Positions 1-50,174 of a stretch of DNA of 64,000 bases are shown one piece after another. A program made the position numbers and the translations under genes. The notes under the pieces are model-generated. The model ran no database searches. It was not told the DNA's origin and worked only from the letters and a program-made list of their open reading frames with translations. The stretch comes from Sphyrna mokarran. Its lineage: Eukaryota. Each line of letters begins with the position of its first letter. Positions within the stretch are counted from its first letter, which is position 1. The stretch lies in the NCBI GenBank assembly GCA_024679065.1, contig JAGIQG010000002.1:72230001-72294000 (forward strand), in the 5' to 3' direction.

Positions 1-16
1 ACTGGGGTGGCCACAT

Positions 17-96
17 TCATCTGAGGAAGGAGTAGTGCTCCAAAAGCTCATGATTCCAAATAAAATGGATTTTAACCTGGTGTTGTGAGACTTCTT
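17..96 (+). mobile_element. Penelope-like pseudo-LTR fragment with degenerate minimal hammerhead motif
   Basis: TCAT-CTGAGGA-A-GGAGT-AGT-GCTCC-AAAA-GCTC-ATGA, then the terminus TTTAACCTGGTGTTGTGAGACTTCTT shared with copies at 2.9, 16.3 and 19.6 kb. Confidence 0.7.
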
Positions 97-869
97 TTTG
101 AGGAGAAAAGGGGAAGTTCTTGCCAAATTCAATTGCTTTCACTGATTGGGGGTTTTTGGGGAATCCATTACACAGCTCATGGTGAAGCAGTGAATGAAAG
201 ACCCGAGCATTAGGATTTTCTGTTAATCTGCACTTATGCTAAACCCTGAGGCCAGAATTAGAGGAGTAAAACATTCAAATTTAGGATCAAATTTTTAACA
301 GACCCTGTCACCTTTCACATGGTGTTATCAATAGAAATAAAAGTATTGCCACTCTTCAGTTTCTATGGCCACAATTTCTTTCACTTGGGCACTGGAGAAT
401 TCTGCAACATTGCCCAGGCAAAATTGAAGCCCTGCACTATACAGGTGAGAGATGGTTTCTTCTGCACACTGCAAGTGCAATGACTGTATGTGACATTTTT
501 AAAGCAGTCTAGTTTTCACTAGTAGGCTCTTAAGCTTTTTGATATGAGTTTGCTGTTTTTAAAGCTTGCAATTATCTTCACACTATTGCATCAAATTCAA
601 TAACTTGCTTCAATCTTGCCTGTGGCTTCATCACCACAACAATTATTCTGCTAAAACACTGTCCAAAACTTTATGATCCATCTCCATTTTGCTGATGGAA
701 TATTGCGGGTAGGCAGTGGTGGAGGAGGGTGGGCGTAAGTGTTGCGGTTAGCATGGAAGATGAGTTACAATTTTCCAATCACCTAATCCACCAGCTGTTC
801 TGTGGTATAACTCATCAAAATGTCATTCCATGAGCTTACATTGGGTTTCACTGGAACAAGTTTGGTGAT

Positions 870-1645
870 CAAGGACAGAGTTCACAGTGGGAGTGGAGCA
901 GAGAAGTGAGATGATAGGTGACCAGATGCACACGGTCATGCTTGAAGTTGAGTGGAAGTATTCCTCAAAGTCACCCTATCTGTGTCTAGTCTTCTCAGTG
1001 TAGACTGACTATTGTTAGCAATGAATACAGATGCTAAATTGAAACAGTAAATTGCTGTTTGGGTAGGATGGTGGGAAATGAGGAAGTAAAATGGTAGGAG
1101 CTGCATATACTGTGTTCGCAAAGGATAAGTGCTATGAGAAGAGGGACTGGACTGGATGATTGCAAGGTGAATCATGCTCTTGTAGAGGGAATTGTCCCTT
1201 AATAGAAGAAGAGGAGAGGGAGATATGTTTCCTGAAGGCAGGGGGGTGACCCAATGAATAGAGAGGGTAGTGTGCTTGAAGGTAAGTGATAAAGTAATCC
1301 TATCCTGCTTGGGGTGAGAGCAGAATTATAAGAAATGTAATGGTCATTACCAAGGACCCCATGAATCATAGTAAGTGGAAATCTTGAGTTGAGGACAAGG
1401 AAGTACATTAGAAGCTTTGTCAGAACAGATGTAATGGAGATGGAGAACTAGGAGAATGGAACTGCCTCTTTATAGGAAATAGAGTGGGAGAAAGTGGGGG
1501 TTAGCTATAGGAGTCAATGGGATTTTGGTTACTCGTCTATCTCCAGAAATAGACGCAGAGGTCAAGAAAGGGAAGGGAAGTATCAAGATTGTCACGTGTG
1601 AAGGTGAGAACAGAGTGGACAATGGAAGCAAAATTGATGATAATA
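870..1645 (-). mobile_element. Decayed Penelope-like element (RT C-terminus and GIY-YIG remnants)
   Basis: Minus strand 1640-1562 translates INFASIVHSVLTFTRDNLDTSLPFLD (Penelope-type FT..S..SLPFLD motif); AIYC remnant near 1050; frameshifted. Confidence 0.7.
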
Positions 1646-2330
1646 AAGGCTTCTGTTGGAGTCACTGTACTACAATATTCTTTGATTTATCATGCTGATA
1701 ATCTGCTCATTTTATAAACCGATGGTTGGTTATCCTCGGTATATGACTGCATCACTATTGAGATATGAGTCATGATCACGTTCTGTGTCCTTGCATCTAC
1801 TTTTGAATTGGTCAGCTCCTTACTATACTCATACATCTTCGACTGTGTGGCCAAATTCCCCTCCAACTCAATTTTCACCTTACTCACTGTAATAAGTCAG
1901 ATCACAAACAGTGATGAGACAGAATACTGGAAAGAAGTGGAAGCTGTAATTTTATCAGCATGCCCACTCTGCTTCTGGGAGCAGGCAAGACTCAGAGTGA
2001 CATTCTCCATTGGCCTCGGGTGGACATACTAGTAAAATTCTGACCAGAGAATCTGGTGAACTGGTGTGATGATAATAATTTCTCCCTCAATGTCAATAAA
2101 ATGAAGGAGGTAATCATCAACTTCAGGAAGTGTAGTGGAGGATACATCCCTGTCTACATCAACAGGAATGAAGTGGAAATGGTTGAGAGCGCCAGATTTC
2201 TAGGTGTCCATCACCAATAATCTGTCTTGGTCCCTCCACTCAGATACTATAGTTAAGAAAGCCTACCAAAGCTCTACTTTCTCAGGAGATAAAGGAAATT
2301 TGGCATAACTGCTATGACTCTTACCAACTT

Positions 2331-3017
2331 AGTAAGAAATCTCACAAGACCAGATTAAAGTCCAACAGGCTTATTTGGTAGTAAACGCAACTAGCTTTTG
2401 GAACGCTGTTCCTTTGTCAGGTGAATGGAGAGTTCTGACCACAAACAGGGCATATAATGGCACACACAGTTTACAGAATATTGATTAGCATGCAAGTCTT
2501 TACAGCTAATCTGCTTTTCAAGTCTTAAAGGTGCAGACAATATGAGTGGAGATAGCATTAAGCATAGGTTAAAGAGATGTGTATTGTCTCCAGACAGGAC
2601 ATTAAGTGAGATGTTGCAAGCCCAGGCAAGTCATGGGGATTACAGATAGTGTGACATGACCCCAAGATTCCTGTTGAGGCTATCCTCCTATGTGTAGAAC
2701 TTGGCTATCAGTCCTGTCTTAAGACAATACACATCTCTTTAACCTATGCTTAATGCTATTGCCGCTCACATTGTCTGCACCTTTAAGACTTGAATAGCAG
2801 ATTAGCTGTAAAGACTTGCATTCTAATCAATATTCTGTAAACTGTGTGTGCCTTTATATGCCCTGTTTGTGATCAGAACTCTCCACTCACCTGACGAAGG
2901 AACAGCGTTCTGAAAGCTAGTAGCGTTTACTACCAGGTAAACCCGTTGGATTTTAACGTGGTGTTGTGAGACTTCTTAATGTTGTTTACCCAAGTCCAAT
3001 GCCAGCATCTCCACAAG
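2331..3017. mobile_element. Non-autonomous Penelope-derived fold-back element with ~270-bp inverted arms
   Basis: 2333-2600 is the reverse complement of 2711-2978; flanking TTACCAACTT (2321-2330) / TTATCAACTT (3018-3027) target-site duplication; spacer matches the GIY-YIG tail at 15.7-15.8 kb. Confidence 0.85.
2887..2923 (+). ncRNA. Candidate minimal (type I, dimer-forming) hammerhead ribozyme
   Basis: CAC-CTGACGA-A-GGAAC(AGC)GTTCT-GAAA-GCTA-GTA: intact CUGANGA and GAAA boxes, 5-bp stem II, palindromic AGCU in place of stem III. Confidence 0.6.
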
Positions 3018-3489
3018 TTATCAACTTTCACAGATGCATCATAGAAAGCATCCTTTCTGGCTGTAACACAGCTTTTTATGGCTCCTGCTCTGCGCAAGAC
3101 TGCAAGAAACTACAAAGACTTGTGAATGAAGTGCAACCCATCATGCAAATCAGCCTCCCATCCTTTGAATCTGTCTACACTTCTTGCTGCCTCAGAAAAT
3201 CAACCCACATAATTAAGGACCCTATGCACCCCAGACATTCCTCTTCCATCTGCTTCTGTCAGGAAAAAGATACAAAAGTTTGAGGTCAACCGACACTAGA
3301 ATAGCTCCTTCCCTGCTGCCATCAGAATATATTAAGTTGATCTTTCTCTACACCCTAGCTATGACTGTAACACTATATTCTACACCTTTTTTCCTTCTCT
3401 GTATATGATATGCATATTTGTATTGTGTGCTAGAAACTATACTTTTCACTGTATACTAATACATGTGACAATAATAAATCTAATTAAAA

Positions 3490-3945
3490 TGAGTACTGTG
3501 CAGTGATTGTTCCTACCTATATTTTCATGGACAGATCCATTTGTGGCAAGTACGTTGATGAAGCTGAGTTCAAGTATATTTTTCCATCTTGTTAATCCTC
3601 TCACCATATGTCACAGATCCAATTGAACAGCTCTGCCTTTAACACTTGGCCAGCTCAGTCTGTGGTATCATTGCTGACCCATTCTTAGAGATGAATATTG
3701 AAGACTTCTTCCCCCCCCCCTCCCCCCCCACCTAGAGTATATTCTGCAACATTGCTAGCCTCAGTGCTTCCTCCAACTGGTATTCAATATTGAGGAGCAC
3801 TGATTCTTCAGCTGAGGGGTGGGGAGGTAGTCGAGGGCGAATGAGAGATACGTCGCAATCGGCATGAGTTTTCCTTGCCATGTTTGACCTAATGCCATGA
3901 ATCTCTATGCAATCCACTCCCATATAGTTCCCCTGTCCCATATGT
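3490..3945 (-). mobile_element. CR1/L2-group LINE APE endonuclease remnant
   Basis: PSAEESVLLNIEYQLEEALRLAMLQNIL and VHENIGRNNHCTVL (SDH-like motif). Confidence 0.65.
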
Positions 3946-4190
3946 TGGCAGGGAATTTTGAATGTGTTGTGCTGCTCCTAGATTTTGTGGGGAACAGGCA
4001 TGATCTGACTATTGGTAGCTTCCTCTTACAACTACCTGCATCATCAGAAGTTGACCACTCTGATCACTGAAAGCTTGTGCATTTTGCACAGAGCCTGAAG
4101 GTGGAAATAAATGGCCCTGTTTTTCCTCCTGCTGCTTAGTTTGTTTTGGTGCCCTCTGTTCTTGAGTCTTTTGATAATTTTTTTTTCCGT

Positions 4191-4385
4191 TTTTATTCCA
4201 ATTCAATCCAATCAAGTCCAATTCAGAGTCTCAACAAGTTGAGACAATCCTGATCCAAGCTGACAAGACAGGATTCGCACCTCATGTCTTGGGCTTGATA
4301 TACATGATCCAAGCTGATTGGAGTAGGCATAGCTTCTCCTCCAAGGCTTGCTCTCACTTGCATCTTAGCCAAAAGGCCGAGATGC
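4191..4385 (-). mobile_element. Candidate U2 snRNA-headed short retroposon
   Basis: Minus 4385-4355 GCATCTCGGCCTTTTGGCTAAGATGCAAGTG matches the U2 5' end (GCTTCTCGGCCTTTTGGCTAAGATCAAGTG); followed by 54-nt spaced repeats, a stem-loop and an (ATTGR)n-like tail. Confidence 0.65.
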
Positions 4386-5675
4386 TGCTTTTAAAAATGA
4401 TCAATGTAGAGCTGTGGGAAGAAAGGATAAAAGATTTCCATGGTTACACAGCTATTAAATTCATCAGCTACCCACTCTGAAAAAGCTGTTTCCCACAGCA
4501 ACAGACTTTTATGGCTTATTTGTCTTTGACTCCTGCCTTGAATAAATAATCATATCTCAGCTTGAGAGGACCTAACCAAACCCATTCCCCATAAACTGAA
4601 TTAAAAGAACAATTCCTATCTGGCTCAAGTCTTTATTTAAAAAATCCTTTTGAGCATTTTTATCTATTATTTACAATAGAATTCTGAATGTGGAATTAAA
4701 CCCAGAGAATACATTGCCTGACCTGGCTAGATGGGTGACTGCAATTTTTGATACCTTGGTCAGACACCCCTGAGATGATCGTCACAACATTTAAACAGCT
4801 CAGCCACCACCTGTTGTACAACGTGGCTCACCCTATGGGTGCCTTCACCTTTTGACCCCCCAGCTAGACTAACGTTCAACCTCAAGAAGCAATGTGGACC
4901 TCAACCCCAAAATCCAATATTATTTTCTTCACCTTCTACTGTAGTGTTTCTGTGGAAATGAACAAAAATTACATGTTGCAGTATTATTTTTATTTGAAAT
5001 TAATTTTCAAAAGTTGCAGCTCCATCATCTTCCAGTGCCAAACCTCAAACTGAGTGAAGGCAACTGTTCTCAGCTTTTTGTGCTGCCTTTTTGGTTGGTC
5101 TATAAGGTAGGCTGCTGGCTACACTGTAGAATTTGTTAATTTGCACAGTAGTCAGAACGATTTTCCAAATTTTGGCACAAGTGTATTATGAGCTGAATAG
5201 GAGAACACAAATACCTGAGCAATAGCACTTCCAACAAATCAGAGTCCATTCTGAACAGTTGAATGATGTGCAAACACTCACTGCAGACCGAGGCTCAAAC
5301 GAGAAAAAGCTACATCAGCCCTGCAAACCTCAATAACCACCCCAACATAGTTATAAGAGGAGGAGAGAAAACAGAAGAGATTACAAGGTTACCCTGATGT
5401 CTTCAATGACATCAATGAAGGTTCTGTAAAACTGGAATCCACAATGGCCATTTGTGATCTTTCACTAACATTACAGCTAGAAATTGGGAAAAGTCCTGAG
5501 GCAATTCCAAGCTAAACATTGCTTGCAAAGAAATAGAGCTCTGTGGCTCTTATAAGTAACTTTTAACCTATTGTAATTGCCAGGGCATCAGAGGGTAAAT
5601 GCTAATTTTGAGGATCTTGGTTTCAATTCTAGAAAACGATTGTAGATTAGGGACCAGGAATTGAAATCAGCCTCT

Positions 5676-6040
5676 CATTTATTTACTCTGTCCACACTTG
5701 CTGCTGCCTCAGCAAAGCAGCCAGCATAAGTAAGGATCTCACACACCCAGACATTCTCTCTTCCACTTTCTTCCATTGGGGAAAAAGATACAAGAGGCTG
5801 AGGGCATGTACCAACTGATCCAAGAACAGTTTCTTTACTGCTGCTGTCAGACTTTTGAATGGACTTCCCCTGCATTAAGTTGATCTTTCTCTGCACCATA
5901 GCTATGACTATAACACTAAATTTTGCACTCTTTCTTGTTTCCTTCTCTATGAACAGTATGCTCTGTCTGTATATGCACAAAAAACATTACTTTTCATCGT
6001 ATGTTAATACATATGACAATAATAAAACAGATCAAAAAAA
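5676..6040 (+). mobile_element. Rex1/Babar LINE 3' end
   Basis: Colinear with 3170-3490 (CACTTGCTGCTGCCTCAGCAAAGCAGCCAGCAT...GACAATAATAAA). Confidence 0.8.
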
Positions 6041-9000
6041 ATTGAGAAAGTGTATTTGTTTTTTTTCAAAAATGCTACTTGGAAGAAGTGAGCTATATCA
6101 CTACTGGTTCTAGATGGTTGTCAAGGCTGAGATAATGTTGATGTTGGAATATAAATTAGTGATGTAAAGCAAGTATTGAGCTTACCTGTTAGCAGGGGGG
6201 GCTTGACGCCATATGAGGAACATCTCAGAGGATCTCAGTGAAGCTTGCCCTCTGGTGGTGAGGAAACTATCGCAGATTGGAGGCGAAAAAATCAATTGAC
6301 ACGCGTTTTATTGAATATCAGCAGGAGTTTGTGCTGTTTATATCTGTCGGGCTTCATCAGTGTAGGTCTTGGTTATAAATATCACGACACGTACAAGCCA
6401 ATAAAGAGTTATGATCTCCCAAACCTTTGAATTTATGTTGGATTACCAAGTCTCAAACTACATGAATGGATCCACTTGACCCAGCTCCCTAATATTTCAC
6501 CTCGTAATATATTTGTGTCAAAATTTGGATAATTGGTCCGACTGCTGTGCATTGAGCTCAATGGCAAATTAGCAAATTCTTCACAGCATAGCCAGCCGCC
6601 TACTTCACAAATCAACTAAAAAGGCACCACAAAAAAACTTGCGGGGTGGGGGAATTATGTGAAGCCTACAAGAGTGAGAAATGTGGTGTGAATTCCGGAG
6701 GACAGATTGAGATGTAGAGATAAAGTCAGCAACATGTTTGTGGTTGTCAGCATTACAGCAGCTTGTGGTGGGTTCATAGTTTTATTATATTTGCATCCAT
6801 GAATATTCGTGAATGTGAAACTGTTTTTAATAAAAGCCTTACCTTGTGATAAAATTAGTGGAGCATAGAAGTCTCGCGGCACCCAGTTCATGATTGTTTA
6901 AAGATATGTATCAGCCAGATTTATGCAGTTTTGTGTAAGCTCAGCAGTTTTCCTTGTTACAGCACAAGGGTGGGGAGTCAGGTGAATGGCAGTTTGCATG
7001 GACACTCAAGACCAGCAAGACCAGTGAGTCAGTGCAAAGGGAGTGTGTGGCATGGGATCGGAGTCATGGAGTAGTGGAAAAGTAATCTAAAGGAGGACAG
7101 AAAATGGGGTCAGCACATGGAGGAGTGAAATGAAAAGGGCTTGGTGTGCTGGGGGATGTTGTAGTAGAAACAGTCAGTCAAGGCAAAAGGTGGAGGACCT
7201 ACTGTCCAAATCCTACACAAAAAGGTCTTGGCAGGCAGAGTACCACAATGTTGTTTTTGCACAATAAAGTAAATGTCCCTAGCTGTCTGTAACGGAGAAT
7301 GTATGCCAACCATGAAGCAATACCAGTATATTTTGCTCTCTGATTAAGTAACAATGATGTGCTCATGAATAAAATGAAATCAATTTATTGTAAAATATTT
7401 TCAAGAGAAACTTAATTTGGAAAATACTCCCTTGCCACTTTGTGGTCTCATGGCTTATGTTAATAGCAATGGAGTTGAGCAGAAATGTTTTGACCGTGAT
7501 TGAAGGCTGCATGTTTGGCCAGAAGCCTATTTTGCAACCCACCTGTTGTAGTAGCATTGCCAGCTTAATGATGCATTTCACCAATGAGAAACTATCATCG
7601 CTGTTTAATCACGTTTCACATACTCACCGTTGACACTTAGAATTTTGGTTACAGTCGCATTGCAAATGGCAAAAAGAGCAGGAGTAGTTACAATGCTGGG
7701 AACAGTTTACAAAATCCTGGCTAGTGGAAAGGATTTTCTAGAGTCCATTAGAGGACGGAAATGCTGCTTGCAAATTAGACAGTGCAGAATTTTAATTTCC
7801 CAATGGCAAGTTGAGGTGCAGAAATTAAGTCAACGACGCCTTGAGCATTACCTTAGCTGGTGATGGGTTCCCATTTATAATATATTTGCATACATTGAAT
7901 AATCATTAGCACAACACCATTTTCAATAAAGTCCTTTTGTTAAGATTAAATCAATGACATACAGGAATCCCATGGCATCTGGTTCACATTCATTTAAAGG
8001 TGGCATAAACCAGTCTGCTATGTGGAGTTGTATGTAAAGTCAGCAGTTTTCTTTTGCTTTTTTGGCACAAAGGAGGGGAACTGGAGAATGGCAGCTTGTA
8101 TGGAAACTTGGGATGACAAATGTGAGTCAATGGTAAGGGTGCAACAAGTCCTGGAATACAAATCTGAAGTATTGAACATGCTTCATTCTTAGTGGGGGCG
8201 GGGGAAGTGGGATTACACATGGAGATTGAATGTAACAGACAGACTGCAAACCCTATCTCAGAAATTGTTATTTGACAGAACGTCACAGGATGGCCTCATC
8301 AGAAATATTCATTAAGGTTGTGCCACACTTGTCCTCGCTTTCAAATTATAACATAATTGTTATATTACATAACTGAAAGGATGGAGAATCAAGGCCTCCT
8401 TGGTCTCCTGGCCTCCTTGTTCCCAAAAGGTTCCTCACTTCTATAACCACATCTTGATCCTTGAGCCAGGAATTGGGCCATTTCCCAGCATCGTGATTCC
8501 ACCTCCTGTCCAGCAATGCCCACCCGTTCCATTTCTATAATGGTAGGGATGGAATGGGCTGGAGCTAGGGCTACCATCTCCAGAAGCAGGTGTGAGCCAG
8601 AAATGGTGGCCGACATGCTGAGGCTGGCAGATTAAAAGGCCCACCTTCAATTGCTTGGACGTTTGTTCTGTTCCATAGATGACCTGAGGCTATCAAACCC
8701 TCACTCTCTATTTCCCTCATTTCCTCTCACACTCCCGTGCCCCCTTATCTCCCATATCCTACTTCATATCCTTCATAACCACCCCCTATATCTCCTGTCA
8801 TCCTCCCCATGCACACACCATGCAATATCCACTTTTTACACAACTCATGAGAGCTTGAGCATCCCTAACAGTTTCCCAACACTCACGTTTGGAGTATTCC
8901 AATCTTCTATGAATGATCTGCAAAGACTCTCGAGGTAAGATAAAAGGGTTTGTTTATTTTTACACACATACACAAGAGTGGTTTCAAAGTATCCAATCAT

Positions 9001-10007
9001 TTTGCAGTCACAATAAATGAGAAATAAGGAAGATAGTTAAGGGCACAAGCACAACAAGATACAAGTTAGGGATTTACATGTGTCCAGAATCAGAATCTAA
9101 TGGAAGGTTTCCTCTGAGAAGGGTTGATTGATTTTTAGTGATCTGTCTTTCCAGAATGAGACTTCCACACTAAGAGGAAGCACTTAGAGTGAGTTAGTCT
9201 GGAGGTGTAAGTTCCAAAGCTCCAGCAGGTTGCAATTTTTAATGAACAGAAGAACAGTTCTTTCTGTTGCCACTGTCTTGACGATGGACAGCACAGGCTG
9301 TTCAGTTATTGCTGGAAGTTAAAGAGTAATTTCTGTGAGGTTCACAGACTGCTTAATTAAAGGAAGTCAGCCAAACCAAATCTTGGTCATTGATACTGGT
9401 TTCGGATTGTTCAATGAGGTCCTCCTGTTGAAACTGTTTTGTTAAGGCCACTAGCACTAATATTGGAGATTAGGATCTGCAAAGAGTTGTCTTTATTCAA
9501 ACTTGGCTAGAGCTGACCGATTATCTTCTGGATCATGTGTAGGCTTGGCTTGAAAGATTAAGCTATGCAAGGAATGTTACATTCCAGTTTGAATTGTTAA
9601 CTTTGAAATTTCTGGAAGTCAGCCAATTAGTTAAGCATTAGTTAACTGAGACAAATAAAAATAAGTAATTTATTATTAGATATGTTAGGCCAGAAGAGTA
9701 ATTTGGAACACAAAAGTTTATAACTTTTATAATTATTAATATTTTGTTGACAATTGATTATTCATACAGCTTCTTAAATTGCTGTGGGAACATGAATCTT
9801 GTGTATTTCTATGACCATAGAATAAAAAGAGATAACATGACTTGTCAGCCATGACTAGAAGGAATATGTCTCAATTTTAAATGACAGTTCACAATGTTAA
9901 TACTCAGCCTACCTTAAGTTAAGAGATATAGCTTGAAGCATTGTCTTAAAGCTGAAATAACATGCATAATTAGCTAAAAACCAATGGGCTAATTCTTATA
10001 AAATCAA

Positions 10008-10290
10008 CTTTAATTTGATTTATTATTGTCATGTGTATTAGTATATAGTGAAAAATATTGTTTCTTGCATGCTATACAAAGTATACTGTTCATAAAGAAG
10101 GAAAGGAGAGAGTGCAAAATGTGGTGTTACAGTCATAGCTACGGTATAGAGAAAGATCAACTTAATGCGTGGTAGGTCCTTTCAAAAATCTGATGCAGCA
10201 AGGAAGAAGCTGTCCTTGAATCAGTTGGTACATGTCCTCAGACTTTTGTATCTTTTTCCCTGATGGAAGAAAGTGAAAGAGAGAATAGAT
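10008..10290 (-). mobile_element. Rex1/Babar LINE 3' end
   Basis: Reverse complement of the same tail (TTTGATTTATTATTGTCATGTG...GAAAGATCAACTTAATGC). Confidence 0.8.
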
Positions 10291-10849
10291 CAATTGGCTT
10301 TTTTCGAACAATTGGCTAAGTGGACTTTCAGGTTGTAAGGTATAAAAAGCAGTCTTAAGAAACCATTGTGGGAAAAGACTGTGTGTGAGAGAGAGAAGGG
10401 CGGAAAGCGAAGGGCAGTGAGGAAGAGAAGACAGGGAAATGGGCAGAGATTGGGAGAAGAGAGTGAGAGATGTTGAGAGAAAGATGTGGGTAGCAAGTGG
10501 GAAAACGTGATGTTTTTACAAAGAGGTGTTGAAACCTGTTATCGATGTTTTTCAGAATCATTACTTCATGATTTGGTCTGAGAAAGGTTGTGAAAAGTCT
10601 GTCCAATTGTTAAAGTTAAGCTTTATCTTCTTACTGCTAATTACTGTTAATTGACGCACTTCTTATCTTTCTGACTTGTTAACTTTTTAATGGTTAATAA
10701 ACTTTCTGAATTCCATTTAAAGTGCTCTTTCTTGTCATGTGGTCGAATCTTTAGAACCTGATAAGATTTATGATTGCGGGGAGAGGGCTAATTGTAAACA
10801 AGTGGTCCCTATAAATCTTAGTTTAGACGTATCAAAAATCTTAGAATCC

Positions 10850-11770
10850 TTCTTGGGCTGGAGGAAAGTTCGTAGTGGAGTTCCTCAGGGATTAGTGTTG
10901 GGACTTTTTTTTCCCTGATATTTATTAATGGTCTAGACCTTGGGGTACAGGGAAAAATTTAACATTTGCAGACAGTACAAAACTTGGAACCCTTGTAAAC
11001 TGTGAAGCATGTAGAACATCAAAAGAACATAAAAAAGATGCTGAAATAGTCAGATAGGTGGCAGGTGAAGCTAGTATGGAGAAATATGAAGTGGATTTTG
11101 ATTGGAAGAAGATGAAGGGGCAACATAACATTAATAGTAGTAATCTAGATAGAGTGCAGGAGGTTTAGGTATATAGGTGTGTAAGTCATTGAAGAACAGG
11201 TTGATAGAGCAGTTGAAGCATACAGTATCCTGGGATTTATTAATAGGATATAAAGTACAAGAACAAGGAGATTATGTTGAATTTGTGTAAAACATGTCTG
11301 GGCACTGCATTTTAGAAAGGATGTGAAGATATCGGAAAGTATGTAGAAAAAATTCATGAGGATGGTTGCAGTGATGAGAAACTTCAGTTGCAAAGATTGA
11401 TTGAAGAAGTTGAGATTTCTTTCCTTGAGATGGATAGAAGTATTCAAAACCATGAGCTGTGTGGACAGAATAGACAGGCAGAAATTGTTTCCATCTGTGA
11501 AAGAATCAGACAGCACAAATGCTAAACAGTTGGAACAAAAATAAAAGCAATGTTTTTTACTCACCGAATGGTTAGGGTTGGAGAGTGAGGTGGAGGCAGG
11601 TTCAACTGACGCATTCAAAAGAGAATTGGATGATAATTTGAAAAGAGCTACTCTGCAAGGTTACAGGGAGAAGGCAGGAAAATGGGTCTAGATGAAATGC
11701 TCATCCAGAGAACTGGAATGGACATGATGGTGTTAACAGCATTGTTCTGTGCTATAACAATTTTGTGATT
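10850..11770 (+). mobile_element. CR1 (HER1-like) LINE RT and 3' end, decayed
   Basis: SGVPQGLVLG, FINGLD and FADSTKLG motifs; CR1-type 3' tail. Confidence 0.8.
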
Positions 11771-13434
11771 TTTGTTACTGCATCAACATTGTAATGCAGG
11801 TGGGGATGATCAAAAATGCCCACCCCTCAATGGAACTGGCAAGAGCAGGACTTTGTGCAGATCTACTACCCTCACCCTTGTCCTATACCACTCAAAACGG
11901 GGCAGGAATTCCAGAATCAGGTCCCATTCACTATGTTTTTTGCAGGCTAACTTCCATTCTGAGACAGACGGAGGCAGGAAAACTTGGCCCTAAACTCCAT
12001 TGTGCTTTTTAATAGCAATATGATATCTAATTGAATTATTATCACTAATACCAAAATGCTTTTCCATCCACTTGCCAGTTTAATTTCCTGACACTAAATC
12101 CAGAACAGCCTCTTTTCTTGTTGGCTAAAAAGGTTCTCATGAATATATTTTAGGAATTCTGCACCTCCCTATTATTTGATGTAATATATGATGCCTTTAT
12201 TACATGAGTACTTAAAATATAGGTATAGCTCCAGAGATTGGGTGAGAGACTGGAGGAAAGGTTAACCCAACATCTACGCACTTCATGCCACATTTCAAAT
12301 CCTTTAAATGCTTATGTAATTCTTCAAATATTATACTTGGTTGTTCCCCCTCCTGAATCTGTTCCTTTAATTCATGGATCCACCATTTCATATGTCAGGA
12401 GAGTTTTATGGTCCTGTCACAGCGTGAGGCTGACACAAGAGCTTTTTCTAACCCTAATTTTCCTTCTCTAATTTGCTCCCTTCTCTCTTTCCCTCGAAGA
12501 ATTTCTGTAATGAAGCATCAATTCCATGGATACTGATTACCCAATGAGCCTTAATGATTGGAGACAGCATGCTGTTCAACATGATATCAGCCACTTTTAA
12601 CAGAAAGAAACTGAATAAACAATGAAACTGAATATATGTTACACAGAATAATGAACGGTAATGGGAAATATTATAGAGGTATATTTGTATTAACAGCACA
12701 CGTTGGACACAAACCAATTTAGGACTATTCACACATCTGTAATTCATTCTGGACAGTCATTATTCCACACCAAATTAAAGCTAATTAAAATTTTGAAAAT
12801 AAATTACCGAGGAAAAAAGTTTTATGCAGTAAAGCAAAAGTGGCATTGAAGGTTCAATTCAAAGATTATGGTGTCAACACTTATCAAAGTATTGTAAGGA
12901 AAAAAAATGAAAAAGCTAAAGTGTCTGGAAGCAGAATAATACAAGATGTAAAATGCACCATGACGAACATTTGAAAAATAATAATTATGCAAAGGCAAAC
13001 AACTGCCAGAGGAATTTTTGAGACCTGTGATTTTTAAGAGTATCAGTGTAGTTAAACCGTGCTCTGTGGGTGATTAATGAAACTAATGCTGACTCAAATT
13101 CCTCTAATATTTCACATATGTGAACTTTTATGGTCCAATCAAACTGGGTCAACTTTTGCTTTTGGGTAATCAAAAGGCAGACTATCAGATATTGCAGAGG
13201 TAGCTCCAGTTTTGAGGTCATGACTGTATTTATATCAAACAGCCAAAATGCAAGGCACCAAATAGGTGGTGGATTAAAAGTGGCCAATTCTGGGCTACTA
13301 GCAAAATAAACTCAGGGGGTGGGGAGGGATGGGAGGAGTTTTGATCACAGAAGAAGTCTTCCCATAAGAATAAGTTCAAAGCTACTTCTGCTGGGCCTGT
13401 TCTTTTGCCAGTGGAAATGGTTTGAGTATGCATA

Positions 13435-13955
13435 GACCCAGCTGTGCTGGAAATCTGAAATAAGAACAAAAAAGGCTAGCAATACTCAGCAGGTCTTGCA
13501 GCATGCATGGAGAGAGAAACAACATTAATGCTTCACATCAATGACCCTTTATCTGAACTAGAAATATTTTGCAATGCATCAGTTTTCCAGCCGGGGAGAG
13601 ACAGGAGGAAAGGACAAGCAGGAAAGTCTGCAGCATAGAAGGCAGATGAGATTAAATATCAAAAGGGATGATAGAGACTTCAGAAGGAGATAGTAATAGG
13701 ATTGATGAGGGAACAAATGATCTGATTTGAGGAGGTGTAAATAGGAAAGCAGTTGTTGTCAAAGAAAAAGGGCCAAAGGTTATGAACTGAAGTTGTTGAA
13801 CTCAAAATTGAGTCTTGAACACCATAAAGATGCATTATTCTTGAAACTTCTATTTAGCTTTTTAGGAACAACAAAGGAGACAAATGGTAGAAAGGTCAGA
13901 GTGAGGATGGAGGGGAGAATTAAAATCATAGGCAATCAGAAGCTCAGGGTCACAT
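13435..13955 (-). mobile_element. Second Penelope-like family, decayed 3' end
   Basis: TGCTGGAAATCTGAAATAAGAAC...ACTCAGCAGGTC..GCAGCAT..GGAGAGAGAAAC terminus typical of shark Penelope repeats; further remnant at ~14270-14500. Confidence 0.55.
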
Positions 13956-14004
13956 AATGTGATCACCCACTCTGTGACTTACCCAAATTAAAGGAGACTT
14001 CATG

Positions 14005-14235
14005 GGAATATCACCATCTACAAGCCACATACCATCATGACTTGGAAATATGTTGCCATTCCTTCACTGTTGCTGGATCAAAATCCTGAAACTCCTCACA
14101 TAACAGTGGGTGACCCGACATCATGTGGAATGCAGCGGTTCAAGAAGACAGCTCACCATCACCTTCTCACAGATAATTACAGATGGGCAATAAATGCTGA
14201 CCTAACTAGCGATGCCAACATCCTCTAAACAAATA
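14005..14235 (+). mobile_element. CR1/L2-group LINE 3' end
   Basis: GCAGCGGTTCAAGAAGACAGCTCACCATCACCTTCTC...CAATAAATGCTG; same family at 21905-22370 (+) and 29243-29330 (-). Confidence 0.7.
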
Positions 14236-14539
14236 AGTAAGAAAAACAATCCCTTCAGAAAGAAGAGGGGCTGAATTGTGCAGCGATGGCGTTGTGCTGC
14301 AGGTGGCAGGAATACAGGAAATGGAACAAGAACAGTTGAGGGCCCTGTCAACCCTGTCAGACCTCATTTGAGGAAAAAGGAATATTGGAAGCACTGGTAT
14401 TGCAGGTTGCAACATCAGAGAAGGTGCAATGGAGATAGAGAAACCAGAGAATGGAAATTAGTTCTTACAGAAAGTGGGGTGTGAAGAAGTGTAGACATGA
14501 AGGTTATGAGAATCATTGGAGTAAGAGTAAATAAAACAC

Positions 14540-15340
14540 AATAACTAGCATTTATAAGATGCTTTTAAGTCATATTTGGAACATCATGAAACAATATTTG
14601 ACACTAAGCCATACAACAAGTTTTAGAGCTGACAACAAAAAGCCTGATCAAAATGATTTTAAAGAGTATTTCAAAGGATGAAAGAGAGGAAGAGTTGGAG
14701 TAGTTTAGTAAGGGAATTCCAGAGATTTGGGTCTTGACAGCTGAAAACTTGGCCACCAATACGGGAACAATAAAAATCAGTGATGCTGAAGAGGCCATAT
14801 TTGGTAGAGTTTTGATGTCTCAGATGGTTGTAACACTAGGGGAGAGTGCTGAGGTGGGGAGGAGATGGGTCTTTGGAGAGAATTATAAAAGAAAGGTGTT
14901 GTTTAACCAAGAGCCAAAGTAATCAGCTGATACCTGGATGATGGGCGAACGAGATTTGATGCAAGTTAACTCATGGGCAGCAGGGCTTTGTATCACCTCA
15001 GGGGGCTTTACTAAAGCTCTGTCTAAGGGTCTGGGTGGTAGTTAATCCATCACTAAGTACAATGTAATAGTCAAATCTAGAAGTAACAAAGGCATGGATG
15101 AGAATGCCAGCAGAAGATGAACTAAGGCAGAGTGAAGTAAGACAATGTTACAGAGGTGGAAATAGATAGTTTTAATGATGGAACAGACATGAGGTTAGAA
15201 ACTCACCTGGGGGTCAGATATAACATTGTGGTTGTGAACTGTCTGGTTCAGCCTCAGACAATTGGTGGAAAGAGTGATAAAATCAATAGCTAGGGAGTGG
15301 AGTTTGTAGCAGGGATTGAAGACATTTACTGGATTAATTT
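14540..15340 (-). mobile_element. L2-type LINE 3' region, decayed
   Basis: ACTAGCATTTATAAGATGCTTTTAA tail and purine-rich antisense RT remnant. Confidence 0.5.
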
Positions 15341-15408
15341 TTAAACCAAAGCTCCATTTGCCTTTACAGATAGCTATGAAAGATCCCATGTCTATGATAC
15401 ATAGAAGC

Positions 15409-16325
15409 CATGATGTAGAGATGCCAGTGTTGGACTAGAGTAAACATAGCAAGAAGTCTCACAACACCAGGTTAAAGTCCAACAGGTTTATTTGATAGCA
15501 CAAGCTATTAGTTTTCGGAGTGCTGCCCCTTCATCGGGTCTGTGGTACTATTCACAAACGGGGCGTATAAAGACATAAATTCAATTTACAAAACAATGGT
15601 TGGAATGCGAGACTTTACAGGTAATTGAGTCTTAAAGATACAGACAATGTGAGTGGAGAGAGGGTTAAGCACACATTAACCTCCAGACAGGACAGTTAAT
15701 AAGATTTTGCAAACCCAGGCAAATTGTGGGGGTTACAGATAGTGTGACATGAACCTAAGATCCCGGTCAAGCCCGTCCTCATGTGTGCGGAACTTGGCTA
15801 TCAGGCTCTGCTCAACAACTCTGTGCTGTTGTGTGTTGTGAAGGCCGCCTTGGAGAACGCTTACCCTAAGATCAGAGGCCGAAGCCCGTGACTGCTGAAG
15901 TGTTCCCCAACAGGAAGAGAACACTCTTGCCTGGTGATTGTCGAGTGGTATTCATTCATCCATTGTTGTAGCATCTGCATGGTCTCCCCAATGTACCATG
16001 CCTTTCCTGCAGCGTATTGGGTTGACAGCGTTGGCCAAGTTGTGAGTATATGTACCATGTACCTGGTGAATGATGTTCTCACCTGTGTTAACCCTCTCTC
16101 CACTCACATTGTCTGTACCTTTTGAGACTTGATTAGCTGTACCTTTGAGACTTGATTAGCTGCATTCCAACGATTAGTTTGTAAACTGAGTTTGTGTCTT
16201 TATATGCCTTGTTTGTGAATAGAACTCCCACTTACCTGGTGAAGGGGCAGCTCTCCAAAAGCTAGTGGCTTGTGTTACCAAATAAACCCGTTGAACTTTA
16301 ACCTGGTTTTGTGAGACTTCTTACT
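15409..16325 (-). mobile_element. Penelope-like element: GIY-YIG endonuclease remnant between inverted pseudo-LTRs
   Basis: Frameshifted AWYIGETMQMLQQWMNEYHSTI..SLPVGEHFSSH and SDLRVSVLQGGL..EQSLIAKFRTHEDGLDRD; ~15451-15670 inverted against ~16087-16325. Confidence 0.85.
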
Positions 16326-19300
16326 CTGTCTCTATCTCAGTTCTCTGCCTGAAGACAGTTACTAGAACTTGAAACTAGTTTCACCCAATTAGAATGTTCA
16401 AAATTTTCTTTCAGCATCCAGTGTGGAACATAATTATTTACTGAAAGATGAAGTGGGTGGGAGGAAACATATGTAGGGAATAAATACTGGCTTGATAAAT
16501 ACTAGTTTTGTGCAGTGACACTCCTGACCATTGACTCTGGGTTCTGGAGTTACAGAAAAATATTGAGAAAACTCTGCAGGATTTTTATCCCACAGATTTT
16601 TTTTAGCTTTTAGTTGCAATATGCCTCAGTGTTTGCTTTAGTAAATTAAGACTAATACCACAGTCAAAAGAAGTTTCTGATGCTTTGTTGCATGCATAAG
16701 TAGGAAAGAAAGAACACTAATAAACCATGGAAACTATAATTTTCCTCCACTTTTCAGATGTTTGACAGGAGGGTCAAAAAAAAAGCAGAGCTTTTGATGA
16801 AGAATTTTAGTGATACCAACTTGAAATATTGTAATTCATTTCTTACAGGTTATAAAAATAGTAAAATGCTCTTGGGAGAGTTTGCATGAACTTTCTTGAC
16901 CTCCTGCTATAACTTCAGCAGTAGATGGCTGGAAACATTTGAGAAATGTTTGTTTTTAATTGTTTTTAGCCATTTGCACCATTCTTTCTGAGTTCTATAG
17001 ATCTTCTGTTGAAATTACTGTTGTAACTCCCATGGAAATTCTATGTATCTATGTTTTAATCAAATAAATTACCTGCCTGCCCAAAGTCAAGACAATTCTC
17101 TCAGGTTCAGTTCACCAATTTTGAAGTAATTTGGACAGAGCAAAATTGTAGAATTGATATACATGGGTAATTTGGAAGGTAATGAAAATAATTTCTTTGG
17201 ATTGGAAATCCTTGGGTTATTTTAATATGATAAAGTAAACAACATTAAACCTCTTGCTTGAAAAATTTGCCATATGATATTTAGCATCAAATCATGAAAA
17301 GATTTGTAGCATTGATTCATTTCAGCTGAACAGTACTTGAATGATGACTTTAGTAAAAGTGTTTGTGTGCTGTAAAATATTCCAAGGAATATGGGAAGTA
17401 CTTTCTACAAATGGAACACCTTTCATTGAATGCAGTGAGATAATGGGAGCAAAATTTCTATCAGGCCCTGGCAAAACAGAGGTGAATGGTCCCACCGAGG
17501 AATGGAAAATGGAATAGACACAGTTTAATTGATGTTACACAGATTGGTCTGCAGTTAACAAGTTTATCCGCCTTTCCTTTTTATAAATAAAGTTGTGACA
17601 TTTGCAGCCTTCCTTGTGTCTTATTGGGATTGGTCTCTTTGATCTCTGATCTCCCATTTTGCAGTGGAAGAAGATCTCCCTCTTGCTACCTGGATGTCCC
17701 CTTTCTTTTTCCTCAAATATTTATTGTGAGTATTATTACATTTTCCTCGGTCTTTTCAATCCTTGGAGTGGTATGTGCTTTTGATTTTTTTGAAACTCTA
17801 TGCATATATGTGTGGGGGTATTCATTGAGTTAGATGCTGCTAATATAACTTTAATAACACAGAATTTCACATATACTGATAACCCTATCCTTATAAATTA
17901 AGATGGGGTTGGGGTCTGTCTTCCCAATTGGATGAGAGTTCATGCTACCACTCTTACACTGTCAGAATGGATCTACCATGTTTTCCAGTGATAGGACATG
18001 GAGGAGCTAATGTGGAGAGAAGAATTTTCTATTTTTCTACCTAATTATCCTGGGATTTCTCAGGAGAATGTATGACAGTTATTGGGCAAGGAATATCTTG
18101 AATAGATGCATAAGTATTATAACTGTGTGGGATAGGCTAAATGGACCAGGCGCTTATTTCCTGCCCAATGTTTTCATATATTCATATGCTTGTATGATTG
18201 GCTGAATGGATAGACAGATGTACAAGCTTATTGGTGAATCTCGTCAGTTCTGCTCATTGGAGCAATATACTAGATGTCTGTAAGATGTTATAATGCCACC
18301 TGTTGCGAAGTAAAAAATAACAGGTGTTATCATTATAGTGTCACCAATGATTTCAAATAATTGTAAAATCATTACCAACTGAGAATATTAATTGAGTCTT
18401 AGTGAAATTCTTATGGCTTTGATCATAATCACACAATGCGAAGTGTGTATCTTTGAGCTGTTGTCTTGTAGTGGGTTTGGCAGGGTTTTAAACTTCAGCC
18501 CTAAATAAGCAAAATTTTGTGAAAATGTAAGATGAGATTCATGTGCTCATTAAAATTCTTTTAACATTGTTACCTGTGTGTAAATCATCAAGCAATTTTT
18601 GCAAAAATGATGTATCCTATGAGTTATAATTTACATGACTTGTTTGATGATGTGTGTCATTCTTCATGTTAGCCTTACAAAAGCAATAGCTCCTCATAAA
18701 TTTAAACAACTGCTGCATTTGCCCATTGATTACCAATTAAACTTGACATAGAAAATTAAGTTAACAACACAAGCACCATTTTTAATGATAAGAGTTATGT
18801 TGCTGCTTATCCACTTAATAACTCTGGCCTAGAAAAGTCCAAAATTAAATTGTTTTAATTGTGGAGTCTCACCCTACATCGATTTTTTTGTTTTCTCTTT
18901 TTCTTCTTTCTCTTAATCCAATCTTTTCTTTCTCTCTCATTATTTTCTCAATCTATAAATCTTGATGGTTAATGTTGTAGACTGCTGATCCTGACATTTA
19001 CCGTGGTCCCAGATAACCCCTTGTCCTCACTGTGTCATTATCAGCTTGCATTTCAAGCACATTGCAATGCAGAAAATGTTCAACTGATTGGTGGGTTCTT
19101 GAGGCACATTTCAGGACTTTGGGATATCCGAAAGTATTTTGTGATCAATTACTTATGAAATAAATATTGTTACTAAGTTAGCAAATATGGCAGTAAATTG
19201 CAAGCGGTACTTAGTAATTTCAATATAATTGGGTATTACAAAACTACCATCTTATGGATTATAAAATTTTGACTCATAGAACGAAACAACACGGGAAACC

Positions 19301-19421
19301 ATTTAACCCATCATGTTTGCACTTGCTCTTTAAACAAAATCATTGCATAAAACGTTTTCTAAAGTTGCTGCTGGTTCTTCAGCCAATCAGTTTAAATTTG
19401 TGTCGCCTTGTTACCTACCCT

Positions 19422-19647
19422 TCTCACAACACCAGCTTAAAGTCCAACAGGTTTATTTATAGCAAATGCTACAAGCTTTCGGAACACGCTGTCCCTTCAC
19501 CAGGTGAGTGGGAGTTCACCTGATGAAGGGACAGTGTGTTCCGAAAGTTTGTGGCATTTGCTACAAATAAACCTGTTGGACTTTAGGCTGGTGTTGTGAG
19601 ACTTCTTTCTGTTTTTACATCAGTCCAACACCAGCATTTCCACATCA
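19422..19647. mobile_element. Minimal Penelope-derived palindrome (~86-bp arms, 8-nt spacer) plus one-sided tail
   Basis: 19422-19507 is near-perfectly inverted at 19516-19601; 13-bp TSD TACCTACCCTTCT at 19412-19424 and 19648-19660. Confidence 0.9.
19516..19554 (+). ncRNA. Candidate minimal hammerhead ribozyme
   Basis: TCAC-CTGATGA-A-GGGACA(GTG)TGTTCC-GAAA-GTTT-GTGG; the antisense arm has a CTGGTGA...GAAAGCTT variant. Confidence 0.55.
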
Positions 19648-21119
19648 TACCTACCCTTCTGCAGTGTAAGAATTATCTTTATATATTCTATTAAAACCAC
19701 TCATGATTTTGAACATCTGTTAAAATTCTTTTAACATTATCTGCTGTGTGGAGATCACTCTCAACATCTTATGGGGAGAACTTCCCCAGCTCGCCCACCA
19801 TGGGAATCGTAGAAGGCGGAGGGCGGACCATGCAAATGTCCATTGACCTCAGGTGGAACTTTCTGGTTTTGAGTGATGGTGGCCGGCAAGTACTGTCCTA
19901 TGTCTTTCCACATCACTGAAATCTCTCATCTTTCCTTCCCGTCTAGTCGGTCTTTTCTGCACCTCTTCTAAGCCTGTGGCATCCTTCCTAAAGTGTGGAA
20001 CTCAAAATTTGACACAATATTCCAGATCAGGCTTAACCAGTGATTCATAGTTTTACCATAACTTCATTCCTTTTGTACAGTAATAGTTTATAAATCAAGA
20101 CAAGGATTTCTAACAGACCTCTCTGCTTGTCCTTCCACCTGAAACAATTTGTACAAATCCATATCCAGGTGTGCATGCTCTTGCATCCTCTTTAAAATTG
20201 CACAATTTTGTTCATTTTACCTCCCCTCATTCTTCCAGTAAAATGTATCACCTCACACCTCTATGCATTAAGTTTCATCTGTCTGCCCCTATTCAACCGT
20301 TTCTGTCCTCCTGAGGACTGTTACTATCTTCTTCTTTATTGCTGACATACCTGAACCTTTTTTTATGGGCCAATGATATTTCAAATAAAAAGGTAAATTT
20401 TACTTTGTATAGTAGATACAATAAAACATACACTTTACACAACCAGTTGTATTCATAGTGCTTTCTAAACAAATGTAGCACTATATAGCTACACACTTCT
20501 ATAATACGCTGTTCTTTATTCATGCAGAGTAGGTTTGGAGCCCTATCCAACAACAGCTTTCACATTCAAGTATCTTAGGCATGAAAAGCATCAGCAAGTC
20601 AGAATTCTATGCACCCTCTCTCTCATGGTTTATGGCAGCCCTAATGCGTATTTTTCTAGAATTCCTTTTCAACCGGCCAACAACTAACACTCCAGTTCTC
20701 AGGTATGGCCACTTCTGGGGAAGCATACAATTCTTTAGCATCTCCAAGAGGTTCATATGGATTACCAGGTTGTAGACTCTTTTAACCAGTTCTCACAATG
20801 TCTCCAAGAGCTCATATCTCCTGTTTTTGTCAAACAGAAAAACTGACCTCTTCCTGTGAGTGATTTGTTTCTTCTCCTCACAAGAATTATCCATTTTTCT
20901 ATCTGCTCTCTCTTAGTGACAACACATGTACACTGACCATCTTCACCATGCAGCTCCTCTGCATGCAGCTCTTTCTTGTGTCTGCCAGCTGCACAGCTTC
21001 TTTCTTAACTTTCTTCCTTGTTGTCATTGCTTGTAGTTCAAAGGTCAGTGGATCACATGACTATTTGATAGCTTGAGAAAGACTGTTTTCCTTGGGGGGA
21101 AAAAGAAGAAGTTTAAGAG

Positions 21120-34744: not shown

Positions 34745-35113
<369 letters not shown>

Positions 35114-35604
35114 TAATTTCACAGATGGTTTAGGTGAAAGTACTCCTGGAAAATATGTTTGAATGAACTGGCCAATTCCAAACACAAATGGTCGGCAAAA
35201 CAAACCCTCTCTCAATCATTTATCTGGGATTGCTTCGCTATCCGCGCCTCGCTATTGCCCTAGATGCATAAACACAATTGTATATATACATTGTATATAG
35301 ATACATAAATATATACATAGTATATATACATTAATACTGTGTATAATTCACAGCGCCTGACTTGAACCCTGCAGAGTAACCCTTGTCTTGTTATTTCAGT
35401 AGACCATCCGTCTCTCCCCCGCCTCATATGATTGGGTTGAACATTCTGAACAGTACTTGCAGCAAGACCGATGTTAGGAAAACTATTTATATTTATTTAT
35501 ATTAAATCGAATTTTATTCCATTCATTTCGACTAGTAATTTCAGTGGTGGACGAGTGTATTTTGATAATCATATTTTAGACAGTGAGCGTGAAGTAACTT
35601 CTGG

Positions 35605-35700
35605 ATTTTGAATTTGATTTATTATTGTCACATGTATTGGGATTCAGTGAAAAGTATTGTTTCTATCGCGCTATGCAGACAAAGCATACCGTTCATAAGA
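35605..35700 (-). mobile_element. Short Rex1/Babar 3' tail in Dlx5 intron 2
   Basis: TTTGATTTATTATTGTCACATGTATT...GAAAAGTATTGTTTC..CGCGCTATGCAGACAAAGCATACCGTTCATA matches 10014-10095. Confidence 0.85.
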
Positions 35701-36330
35701 ACCCACGTTAATTATTTAGAAGGTTTCGTAACGAAATGTCTCCCTCTTAAAAATAGAACGTCGTCCTATATTTTTAAGAGATCTTTTGGAAAATACACAC
35801 ACGGGGAAACTGCAGAACACTTTCTTGGAGGTGGGGGGGTGGAGAGGTGTGTGCTTTACCAGTTTGTTAGTTTCTTGTCGATCACTTCACTTATTTTGCT
35901 TATTATTAAGTATTAGCCTATTACTGTTTAAAAGTAAAATTGCTGTCATGAATATGTGCACAGGGCTCTTTACTTATCTGGATCTGGTGACAAATTGTCG
36001 AGAATGCACCGCGCAGTTTTAAACAAGGATTTCCAAACGAAACATTCGAGTAAGTTGTGTGGAGAGGGGTTAGAGAGAGGAAGAAATTATGGTTGTTGTC
36101 AGTGCACCGAGGGACGTACATTGATTTATTCTCTTGGTATGAAAATCCCAAATAGACCTTCTTTTCATTATTTTGTTACAACGCGCGAATCGACTAATAA
36201 AAATATAGGCGATGGACGCGGCACAGTCCATTTAGCACATACTAATTCGCAGTCCAAGTCCTTTACTTTGTCTTAGTTAATGCTGTGACATTTTGTTTTA
36301 GAATTGAATCTTCACCGTTTGTTTTGGCAG

Positions 36331-36645
36331 GTTAAAATATGGTTCCAGAACCGAAGATCGAAGATTAAGAAAATCATAAAGAATGGAGAGATCCCGCCAG
36401 AGCACAGCCCCAGTTCCAGTGACCCCATGGCTTGCAATTCTCCTCAGTCCCCTGCCGTCTGGGACACTCACAACTCCTCAAGGGTTGTCCACTCTCACCA
36501 AACTCCCAGCCACAACCCATCCACCGCAGGCTACCTGGAGAACGCCACTTCTTGGTATTCCAATCCCAGTTCCATTAATTCCCACATGCAATCTACAAGC
36601 TCACTACATCATCCACTAGCTTTGGCATCCGGGACTATTTATTAA
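36331..36645 (+). CDS. dlx5: Dlx5 coding exon 3 (helix 3 and C-terminus); spliced protein 277 aa
   Basis: Acceptor GTTTTGGCAG|; [14 protein letters not shown]...[23 protein letters not shown]...[14 protein letters not shown]. Confidence 0.97.
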
Positions 36646-41799: not shown

Positions 41800-42120
41800 A
41801 ATTAAACATTGTGAGTTTTCCACTCAGCAGCCATCTGCTCTATACAAATAATGGCGAAATTAGCCTAACTGGACAGTTGCAGCGATGTAATAACTTGCAG
41901 TAATTATCCCCCAGTCTGGATTAAGATGTTATTATTATAATCTGGACATTTACAATTGCCATAATTTGCAAAGATGCGCCGGTTCTTGATTACAGCAGTT
42001 TTATCAACCGAGCCGTCACCAAACACTGACAGTAATAACAGCTAATTTTGCTGGCAATATAAGAGGTGGCGGGTGTGCAAACAATTTCACACCTGGATAT
42101 GCTCACTCAACCGGAGGAGC
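41800..42120. promoter_or_regulatory. Dlx5/6 intergenic enhancer I56ii (eii) orthologue
   Basis: Dense TAAT/ATTA sites; ATAATTTGCAAAGATGCGCC.GTTCTTGATTACAGC and AATAACAGCTAATTTTGCTGGCAAT resemble the mammalian element as I recall it; lies on the Dlx5 side of I56i. Confidence 0.7.
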
Positions 42121-42652
42121 TCACGCTTCTGCCCGGTTATACAGTATAACGATTTGACTAGTCACCGTTGGCAGAGTTTTCTATTGGGTGTGTACTTGGA
42201 AAGGACATGTCAGGTATGTTTGAAACACGCTTTGTATACGTACACATATTCACACAACTTAATATGAATGTATACATACACATATTTGTATATTTTCTAT
42301 ATATAGACATTTAAGATACGTCATCTACGGAGGGGAAAGTTTACGCCTGAGTACAAGCGAAAGTGTGATATAAAATCGTGATTTGTTTGAGACAATTTGA
42401 TGATGAACACTTGGGTACATCTTCATTTTGCACTATCACACTGTCACTGGTTGCTTTGATGGGCATGGTGAGGTAAAATGACTGTAAGACGAAGGCGCTC
42501 TGTACAGAATATTTTCCAAAATGCCGATGCCCTCATGTTCTGTTTTTGCCTGCGGCGCTTTGCTGAACAAATTACAGACAACACTGGGGATAGATCGTAG
42601 TATCTCAGAGGCCCAAGCCTCAAAGAACGAGTTCTCCATTCATTCGCCCGTC

Positions 42653-46743: not shown

Positions 46744-46992
46744 TCACATCATTTGTCTTTGTACAGTGTCCTGGTGAGCCGTGGAGTACCAGGGAGAATA
46801 ACCAGCCATGTAATTGTTCGGGGTCATGTTAACGCCTTTGGTCGAAGTTGAGATGTCCCACACTGGTGGCATGGCTGGGGAGCGAGGGGAAAGAGCAGCC
46901 GACCCTGGCACAGAATCATTCTCAAGAGGATTGCCGCCCTGCTTCATGAGCTTCTTAAATTTGGAGCGTTTGTTCTGGAACCAGATCTTCAC
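46744..46992 (-). CDS. dlx6: Dlx6 coding exon 3; spliced protein 244 aa
   Basis: Acceptor TGTTATAG|; [19 protein letters not shown]...[13 protein letters not shown]...[21 protein letters not shown]. Confidence 0.97.
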
Positions 46993-49980: not shown

Positions 49981-50174
49981 CTGTGTCTGTGTGAGCCCCA
50001 GCGAAGCGGCCAGCTCAGCTCTCTCAGGCAAAGCCAAGTATTGAGTCTGCTGAAAACGGTGGTTTAACGCCTGCAGCTGCAGACTGGAATAAATAGTGCG
50101 AGGCTTGCGGATCTTTTTTCCTTTCCCATTAAAGCGGATCTCTCCGTTTTCAATCACTGTTGTCTTTTGTTGTT
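49981..50174 (-). CDS. dlx6: Dlx6 coding exon 2 (homeodomain N-part)
   Basis: Acceptor TTGTTTTGCAG|; [65 protein letters not shown]; donor CAG|GTACAG; 194 nt. Confidence 0.98.

Follow-up and report, generated by a model that had tools for sequence, protein, structure and literature searches.

Endonuclease-bearing (EN+) Penelope-like elements (PLEs) of the Neptune/Nematis type are retrotransposons in which one open reading frame (ORF) combines a reverse transcriptase (RT) with a GIY-YIG endonuclease (EN), the two being separated by a CX2-5CxxC linker that marks these elements (PMC8557442). Their copies occur as partial tandems, with head-to-head inversion, an inverted 5'-truncated copy, a tail of 30-40 bp at one end and target site duplications (TSDs) (PMC8557442, PMC3846280). 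PLEs also carry, dispersed in thousands of copies, a minimal type I hammerhead ribozyme (HHR) with a helix I of 4 bp, an extra base between positions 9 and 10.1, a G10.1-C11.1 pair and a palindrome at 15.2/16.2 without helix III; its stems vary among families independently of CpG, its opposite-strand pairs lie 100-700 bp apart, and its reported activity is low (PMC4209133), while the role of hammerheads in PLEs is still open (PMC8557442, PMC11167929). Here we analyse four related repeats in 64,000 nt of the genome of the shark Sphyrna mokarran (GCA_024679065.1, contig JAGIQG010000002.1, positions 72,230,001 to 72,294,000; this whole stretch is called the window). Their family shares the listed HHR features, from helix I to the spacing of opposite-strand pairs, and, in comparison with the EN+ sources, no architectural difference was found. 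All four are very probably decayed fragments from the end of an autonomous PLE, truncated 5' and, in three cases, present as head-to-head pairs. A minimal type I HHR sits in the terminal repeat of this element; dimers are predicted to be its only cleaving form, and it is likely inactive in the copies seen here.

The derivation from Penelope, already proposed in a first-pass annotation of the window, was borne out by a decayed GIY-YIG endonuclease on the minus strand (15736-16078) and by an intact parent ORF, which was reached by walking upstream via genome searches. This ORF of 889 aa (L384:1080-3749, G000:C827) carries RT motifs and a GIY-YIG-type end, joined by a linker of the form C-X4-C-X2-C; a match to RVT_1 (E 8.6e-11) supports the RT, a related endonuclease stretch (L112:3-323) scores 0.96 to GIY-YIG clusters, and an intact HHR lies 212 nt past the stop codon. 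A single ORF with RT and C-terminal GIY-YIG endonuclease, a partial tandem of the pseudo-long terminal repeat (pLTR), an inverted 5'-truncated copy, a one-sided tail and a TSD were all found, as expected of an EN+ PLE, and the linker suggests that the element is of the Neptune/Nematis type. Pfam searches with short decayed fragments returned no informative match, in one set for 5 of 7 queries, and none for the endonuclease remnant of the window; a PDB sequence search with an RT fragment returned no meaningful one. Upstream of the ORF, a whole sense HHR was seen by eye in 11 of the 30 loci holding the ORF 5' end. The L384 copy, in which a short inverted end precedes the ORF, looks like a recent autonomous copy, and at L111:4757-5500 a young head-to-head insertion (arms 95.7% alike) is nested in the RT of an older, near-full-length copy.

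For the motif itself, a covariance model was built from 25 genomic copies, as had been proposed initially. The model, whose training set includes the window copy at 2887, finds seven sites in the window (E 9e-16 to 2e-4; next best E at least 0.22), and these are seven minimal type I HHR motifs in four insertions, one solo and three head-to-head pairs (Table 1). The five motifs and four related elements of the first-pass annotation are all present where it had placed them; two motifs, 2388-2424(-) and 19469-19507(-), had been missed, and the inverted head-to-head pairing of three elements, seen by repeat search and BLAST, had been overlooked. Only the 2887 and 19516 copies keep the full core. 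The former, previously singled out as the most intact, indeed retains all core residues, though stem I includes a C.A mismatch and G10.1-U11.1 is a wobble, and the latter, with AGUU, is core-complete as well. The loss of GAAA through CpG decay in the copy at 17 was read correctly, G12>A being seen there.

The bare core pattern occurs in the window at chance level (10 matches against a shuffle mean of 5.7, with 10 of 100 shuffles reaching 10), and an Rfam scan of the window gave no hammerhead family match with E up to 5; Rfam hammerhead models expect a helix III. Both results would suit a chance resemblance of a repeat untranslated region to the hammerhead core, but this explanation is hardly credible and largely refuted already, for the pLTR position, the base added behind A9, the G10.1-C11.1 pair and a palindrome at 15.2/16.2 fit the published PLE consensus, and stem II covaries. 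The case for the motif is carried by its family context and by the genome count, where the exact HHR core pattern gives 13,996 matches compared with 0 for a reversed control.

At the family level, the core C3UGANGA9...G12AAA...U16.1H17 closed by helix I was found together with the extra base at 9/10.1, the G10.1-C11.1 pair and the palindromic 15.2/16.2 without helix III, which supports a minimal type I HHR of the kind that PLEs carry. Among 178 intact-core copies, the extra A after A9 is present in 176 and AGCU in 163, in agreement with the layout first described and with the reduction of stem III to this palindrome. The signature is equally evident in 79 placeable copies out of 80 that were picked by their 3' end or randomly and hence not core-selected (extra A in 77, G10.1 in 76, palindromic GC at 15.2/16.2 in 72). 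Losses in these copies fall on G8 (19), C11.1 (25) and G12 (23), all of them CpG positions, the other fixed core bases being retained in at least 74; the core is intact in 32 of the 79 and in 4 of 20 copies in random DNA.

Judged from pair counts in the 178 intact-core copies, clear covariation of helix II (II.2-II.4) across subfamilies is indicated. Pair II.2 is G-C in 136 and A-U in 17 copies, II.3 is A-U in 78, C-G in 60, G-C in 16 and G.U in 11, including an A-U/C-G double transversion, and II.4 is A-U in 53 and G-C in 43 (n=177); II.3 and II.4 are also the pairs with the highest mutual information after average product correction. In 25 class representatives, 88% of cells pair, against 75% after shuffling (reached by 0 of 500 shuffles) and 27-40% in slid controls, and the covariation score exceeds all 500 shuffles and all slid controls. 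The stem II covariation claimed from the window copies is thus real across subfamilies, whereas the U.G wobbles in GGAGU and GUUCU, part of the original examples, are one-sided C>T changes. In helix I, pair I.1 is C-G in 138, C.A in 19, U.G in 12 and U-A in 0 copies, and pair I.2 is A-U in 98 and G-C in 54. Since U-A is absent from I.1, UCAU/AUGA looks like two independent decay-type changes, and this example is not confirmed as stem I covariation.

How the copies were inserted was read from 93 head-to-head pairs, which come from loci gathered by several searches and are not a random sample. They span 127 to 3586 nt, the tail is on exactly one arm in 81, and a TSD of at least 9 bp is seen in 37, compared with 1 of 500 mismatched-flank controls. 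A non-autonomous family in its own right, as initially proposed, would be a SINE-, MITE- or retrozyme-like unit of ~100-250 nt with the ribozyme at its start, amplified as such. The short span of many copies (46 of 108 one-tail pairs measure at most 270 nt), the accumulation of junctions at the HHR 5' edge and the prevalence of short copies in one subfamily group (13 of 17 on a crude classification, in which some long copies are miscalled) would fit such a family, and pLTR-derived retrozymes have been reported in one chondrichthyan (bioRxiv 10.64898/2026.07.22.740005). Non-LTR retrozymes share with the present copies a type I HHR in short non-coding pLTR-derived sequence, but they consist of units arrayed in head-to-tail tandem, every one with its own HHR (PMC7229834, bioRxiv 10.64898/2026.07.22.740005), whereas the copies described here occur singly or inverted, carry endonuclease remnants and have mostly unique junctions. 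Neither an internal junction shared among many copies nor head-to-tail HHR units were found, the window holding no head-to-tail array of short PLE units. Instead, ~43 different junctions were counted by eye among 50 listed of 553 short inverted loci, the insertion-4 junction occurs exactly twice in the genome, with a different stem II in the second copy, and the arms grade continuously into ORF sequence. On this junction diversity the non-autonomous family was rejected as the main reading; its improbability also follows from the insertion layout, which is the described PLE layout, and from the two ends, which match RT start sites of the anole element discussed below.

Several points nevertheless weigh against the reading of the repeats as end pieces of a ribozyme-bearing PLE, or against parts of it. 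A few short junctions do recur, two classes of ~4 among the same 50 loci, and these few cases may mark a minor amplified subfamily. The double-change pair count in the 25 representatives is not above shuffles (167 of 500 reach it), and the shuffle and slid controls ignore relatedness among copies. Pair I.2 splits two lineages and includes CpG sites, and helix I covariation rests on this one lineage split at a CpG-prone pair. The putative clade was assigned from the linker motif rather than from a tree. Finally, the self-cleavage of a dimer is a prediction.

Poseidon of Anolis (PAc; PMC11167929) shares with the shark element two 3' ends delimiting the tail, here ~35 nt apart, and, probably, insertions mostly from uncut RNA. 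The PAc ORF starts inside stem II, whereas here the predicted cut falls 89-100 nt before the ATG in 14 of the 26 copies with both found; the RT start sites of PAc lie 111-118 nt into the ORF, whereas here the tail ends at the ATG; and the clade of PAc is without the Cys linker present in this element. Following PMC11167929, the enzyme would nick both target strands, reverse transcription would start at two internal sites, to which the two 3' ends correspond, and both of the short cDNAs would be joined to each other at their 5' ends. In the master element, a pair of motifs of like sense, from the two pLTRs of one tandem or from two separate RNAs, would pair through AGCU and be cut after H17, slowly and perhaps with the help of a protein (compare PMC4209133, PMC11167929), and selection on HHR structure would act only on master elements.

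The cut after AGCU-H, suggested at first reading, stands as a prediction. In the window, the two HHRs of an element are on opposite strands, so that a cleaving dimer cannot arise within one transcript, and for read-through RNAs of insertions 2 and 3 the predicted fold pairs 31-39 of 40 HHR bases with the opposite arm. With one motif per strand and its bases buried in a long hairpin, the window copies are likely inert. Minimum-free-energy co-folds of three window motifs gave no HHR dimer fold, a result that does not bear on activity. Genome-wide, 158 of 201 arms cross the cut site, and the templates of most arms were therefore likely uncut RNA. The same figure fits a motif with the shape of a ribozyme but retained for some other function (in protein binding, RT run-off or translation control) and rarely cleaving in vivo, an idea which is compatible with the insertion of PLE ends as described above and which we regard as a minority possibility. 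It would also be in line with the failure of a junction excess immediately 3' of the cut, seen in one set (rate ratio 2.7, p 0.01), to recur in a second (1.2, p 0.46), and with the anole element, in which HHR mutants are without effect on insertion and no RNA-seq reads end at the cut; the anole HHR, however, does cleave with protein (PMC11167929), and here the whole catalytic core is kept in all eight flank-defined clusters while N7, H17 and loop II vary, many of the input loci having been core-selected.

The HHR 5' edge (model positions 395-414) is a hotspot of 5' junctions, which are ~4.4-fold more frequent per base there than upstream; in the three sets, with 125, 76 and 56 arms, the factors are 4.2, 4.7 and 4.7 (p 3e-7, 1e-5 and 1e-4; the arms of a pair are not independent). 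In copies of group A, a TATA-like TTTATAT was noted by eye ~30 nt before an A that sits 6 nt 5' of C3. By manual tally, a preceding G occurs in 64 of 100 listed group A matches (of 1,933) that start at this A (26% expected) and in 40 of 100 listed (of 1,243) that start one base later (29% expected); solo copies show it in 10 of 15. An untemplated G has been attributed to cap copying in L1/SVA (PMC3287187), and transcription of D. virilis Penelope starts in the pLTR, which is TATA-less there (PMC2377424). In group A, the TATA-like box and the G excess suggest that capped transcripts begin at the HHR 5' edge. It should be noted that TG makes up 42 of the 64 preceding-G cases, which speaks against a capped start, and that fold-back microhomology explains some. 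Group B shows no preceding-G excess (22 of 97 by tally, p 0.77; 7 of 30 by script), and its want of a TATA-like box is a post hoc explanation for the missing G. Among the 30 ORF-start loci, the arm boundary lies ~6 nt before the cut site in four (L122, L139, L143, L150; by BLAST), and L127 and L131 begin at the tail start. Four presumed-RNA contig runs on a tandem copy covered 30 of 30 bins, ~100-fold deeper over the pLTR/EN half; they give no starts, strand or clear splice joint and were not used as support. As a tentative and rather doubtful proposal, the many arms of 100-135 nt could be copies that ran off the 5' terminus of a capped RNA starting ~6 nt before the core, with a TATA-type promoter in the pLTR 30 nt upstream. 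The HHR would then be what folds first in the mRNA; a cut in it, 90-100 nt before the ATG, would take off the capped leader and act as an off-switch and not as processing. If this is true, ~220,000 PLE 3' ends in the genome record the start site.

In forty arbitrarily placed stretches of 10 kb, 32 element 3' ends were found, 24 of them spanning the motif; scaled from these 400 kb, the genome would hold ~222,000 PLE 3' ends and ~166,000 motif-spanning arms (95% range 107,000-248,000). Together with the 13,996 exact cores, this compares with ~4,000-9,000 descriptor matches in coelacanth and Xenopus, and helix II is 3-6 bp here versus 7-8 bp in the Schistosoma PLE HHR. Two supplementary files of PMC4209133 name no shark. 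In the literature searched, with most subscription papers and Repbase outside, no description of this PLE family or of the junction peak was found. The motif and insertion features match published PLE biology, the family is a further example of a known element type, and the window copies are ordinary debris. The genome around them, however, has an intact ORF, several subfamilies with covariation and ~1.7e5 motif-spanning arms, so that template ends become readable from junction statistics. Two near-identical PLE copies with the same 3' flank, ~12.6 kb apart (L195 and L196, G000:C1), are probably a local duplication.

Table 1. PLE insertions, hammerhead motifs and associated features in the window
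Positions	Strand	Feature	Evidence
14..96	+	Solo 5'-truncated PLE end, beginning at HHR 5' edge; no tail and no TSD seen	
17..53	+	HHR motif 1; G12>A (CpG decay), core broken	Covariance model E 2.4e-10
2321..2330	+	10-bp TSD, left copy; its counterpart on the right, 3018-3027, has one mismatch	By eye
2331..3017	.	Head-to-head insertion 2; 268-nt arms, 91% complementary; right-arm tail ~2979-3017	
2388..2424	-	HHR motif; G8>A and G12>A; not in first-pass annotation	Covariance model E 3.2e-9
2887..2923	+	HHR motif, full core; G10.1-U11.1 wobble, stem I C.A mismatch; predicted cut 2919/2920	
15410..16329	.	Head-to-head insertion 3; long minus-strand arm with tail at 15410-16078, short plus-strand arm at 16081-16329; TSD not clear	
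15503..15540	-	Degenerate HHR; U4>C, AACU, stem I lost	Covariance model E 2e-4
15736..16078	-	PLE GIY-YIG endonuclease C-terminus remnant, frameshifted	~Residues 780-889 of intact ORF, by eye
16232..16268	+	Degenerate HHR; A6>G, G12>A	Covariance model E 6.6e-9
19412..19424	+	13-bp TSD, left copy; right copy 19648-19660	
19422..19648	.	Head-to-head insertion 4; 86-nt arms, 93% complementary, both beginning just 5' of HHR; right-arm tail	
19469..19507	-	HHR motif; A6>G; not in first-pass annotation	Covariance model E 2.2e-9
19516..19554	+	HHR motif, full core; AGUU in place of AGCU	Covariance model E 6.3e-7

Positions 19700-64000 of the window (44 kb) contain no PLE motif, where ~2.6 would be expected from the random density, a difference not significant alone. 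This part holds two convergent Dlx-type genes with homeobox exons at 34829-36400(+) and 46900-50109(-), which are probably Dlx5/Dlx6; between them lies a sub-threshold Rfam match to Evf-2_5p (42083-42216, 38.3 bits, gathering threshold 40). A second dispersed repeat family with a common 3' end, likely LINE ends, occurs in both orientations at 3040-3490, 5660-6040, 10000-10290 and 60670-60890, one copy directly following insertion 2.

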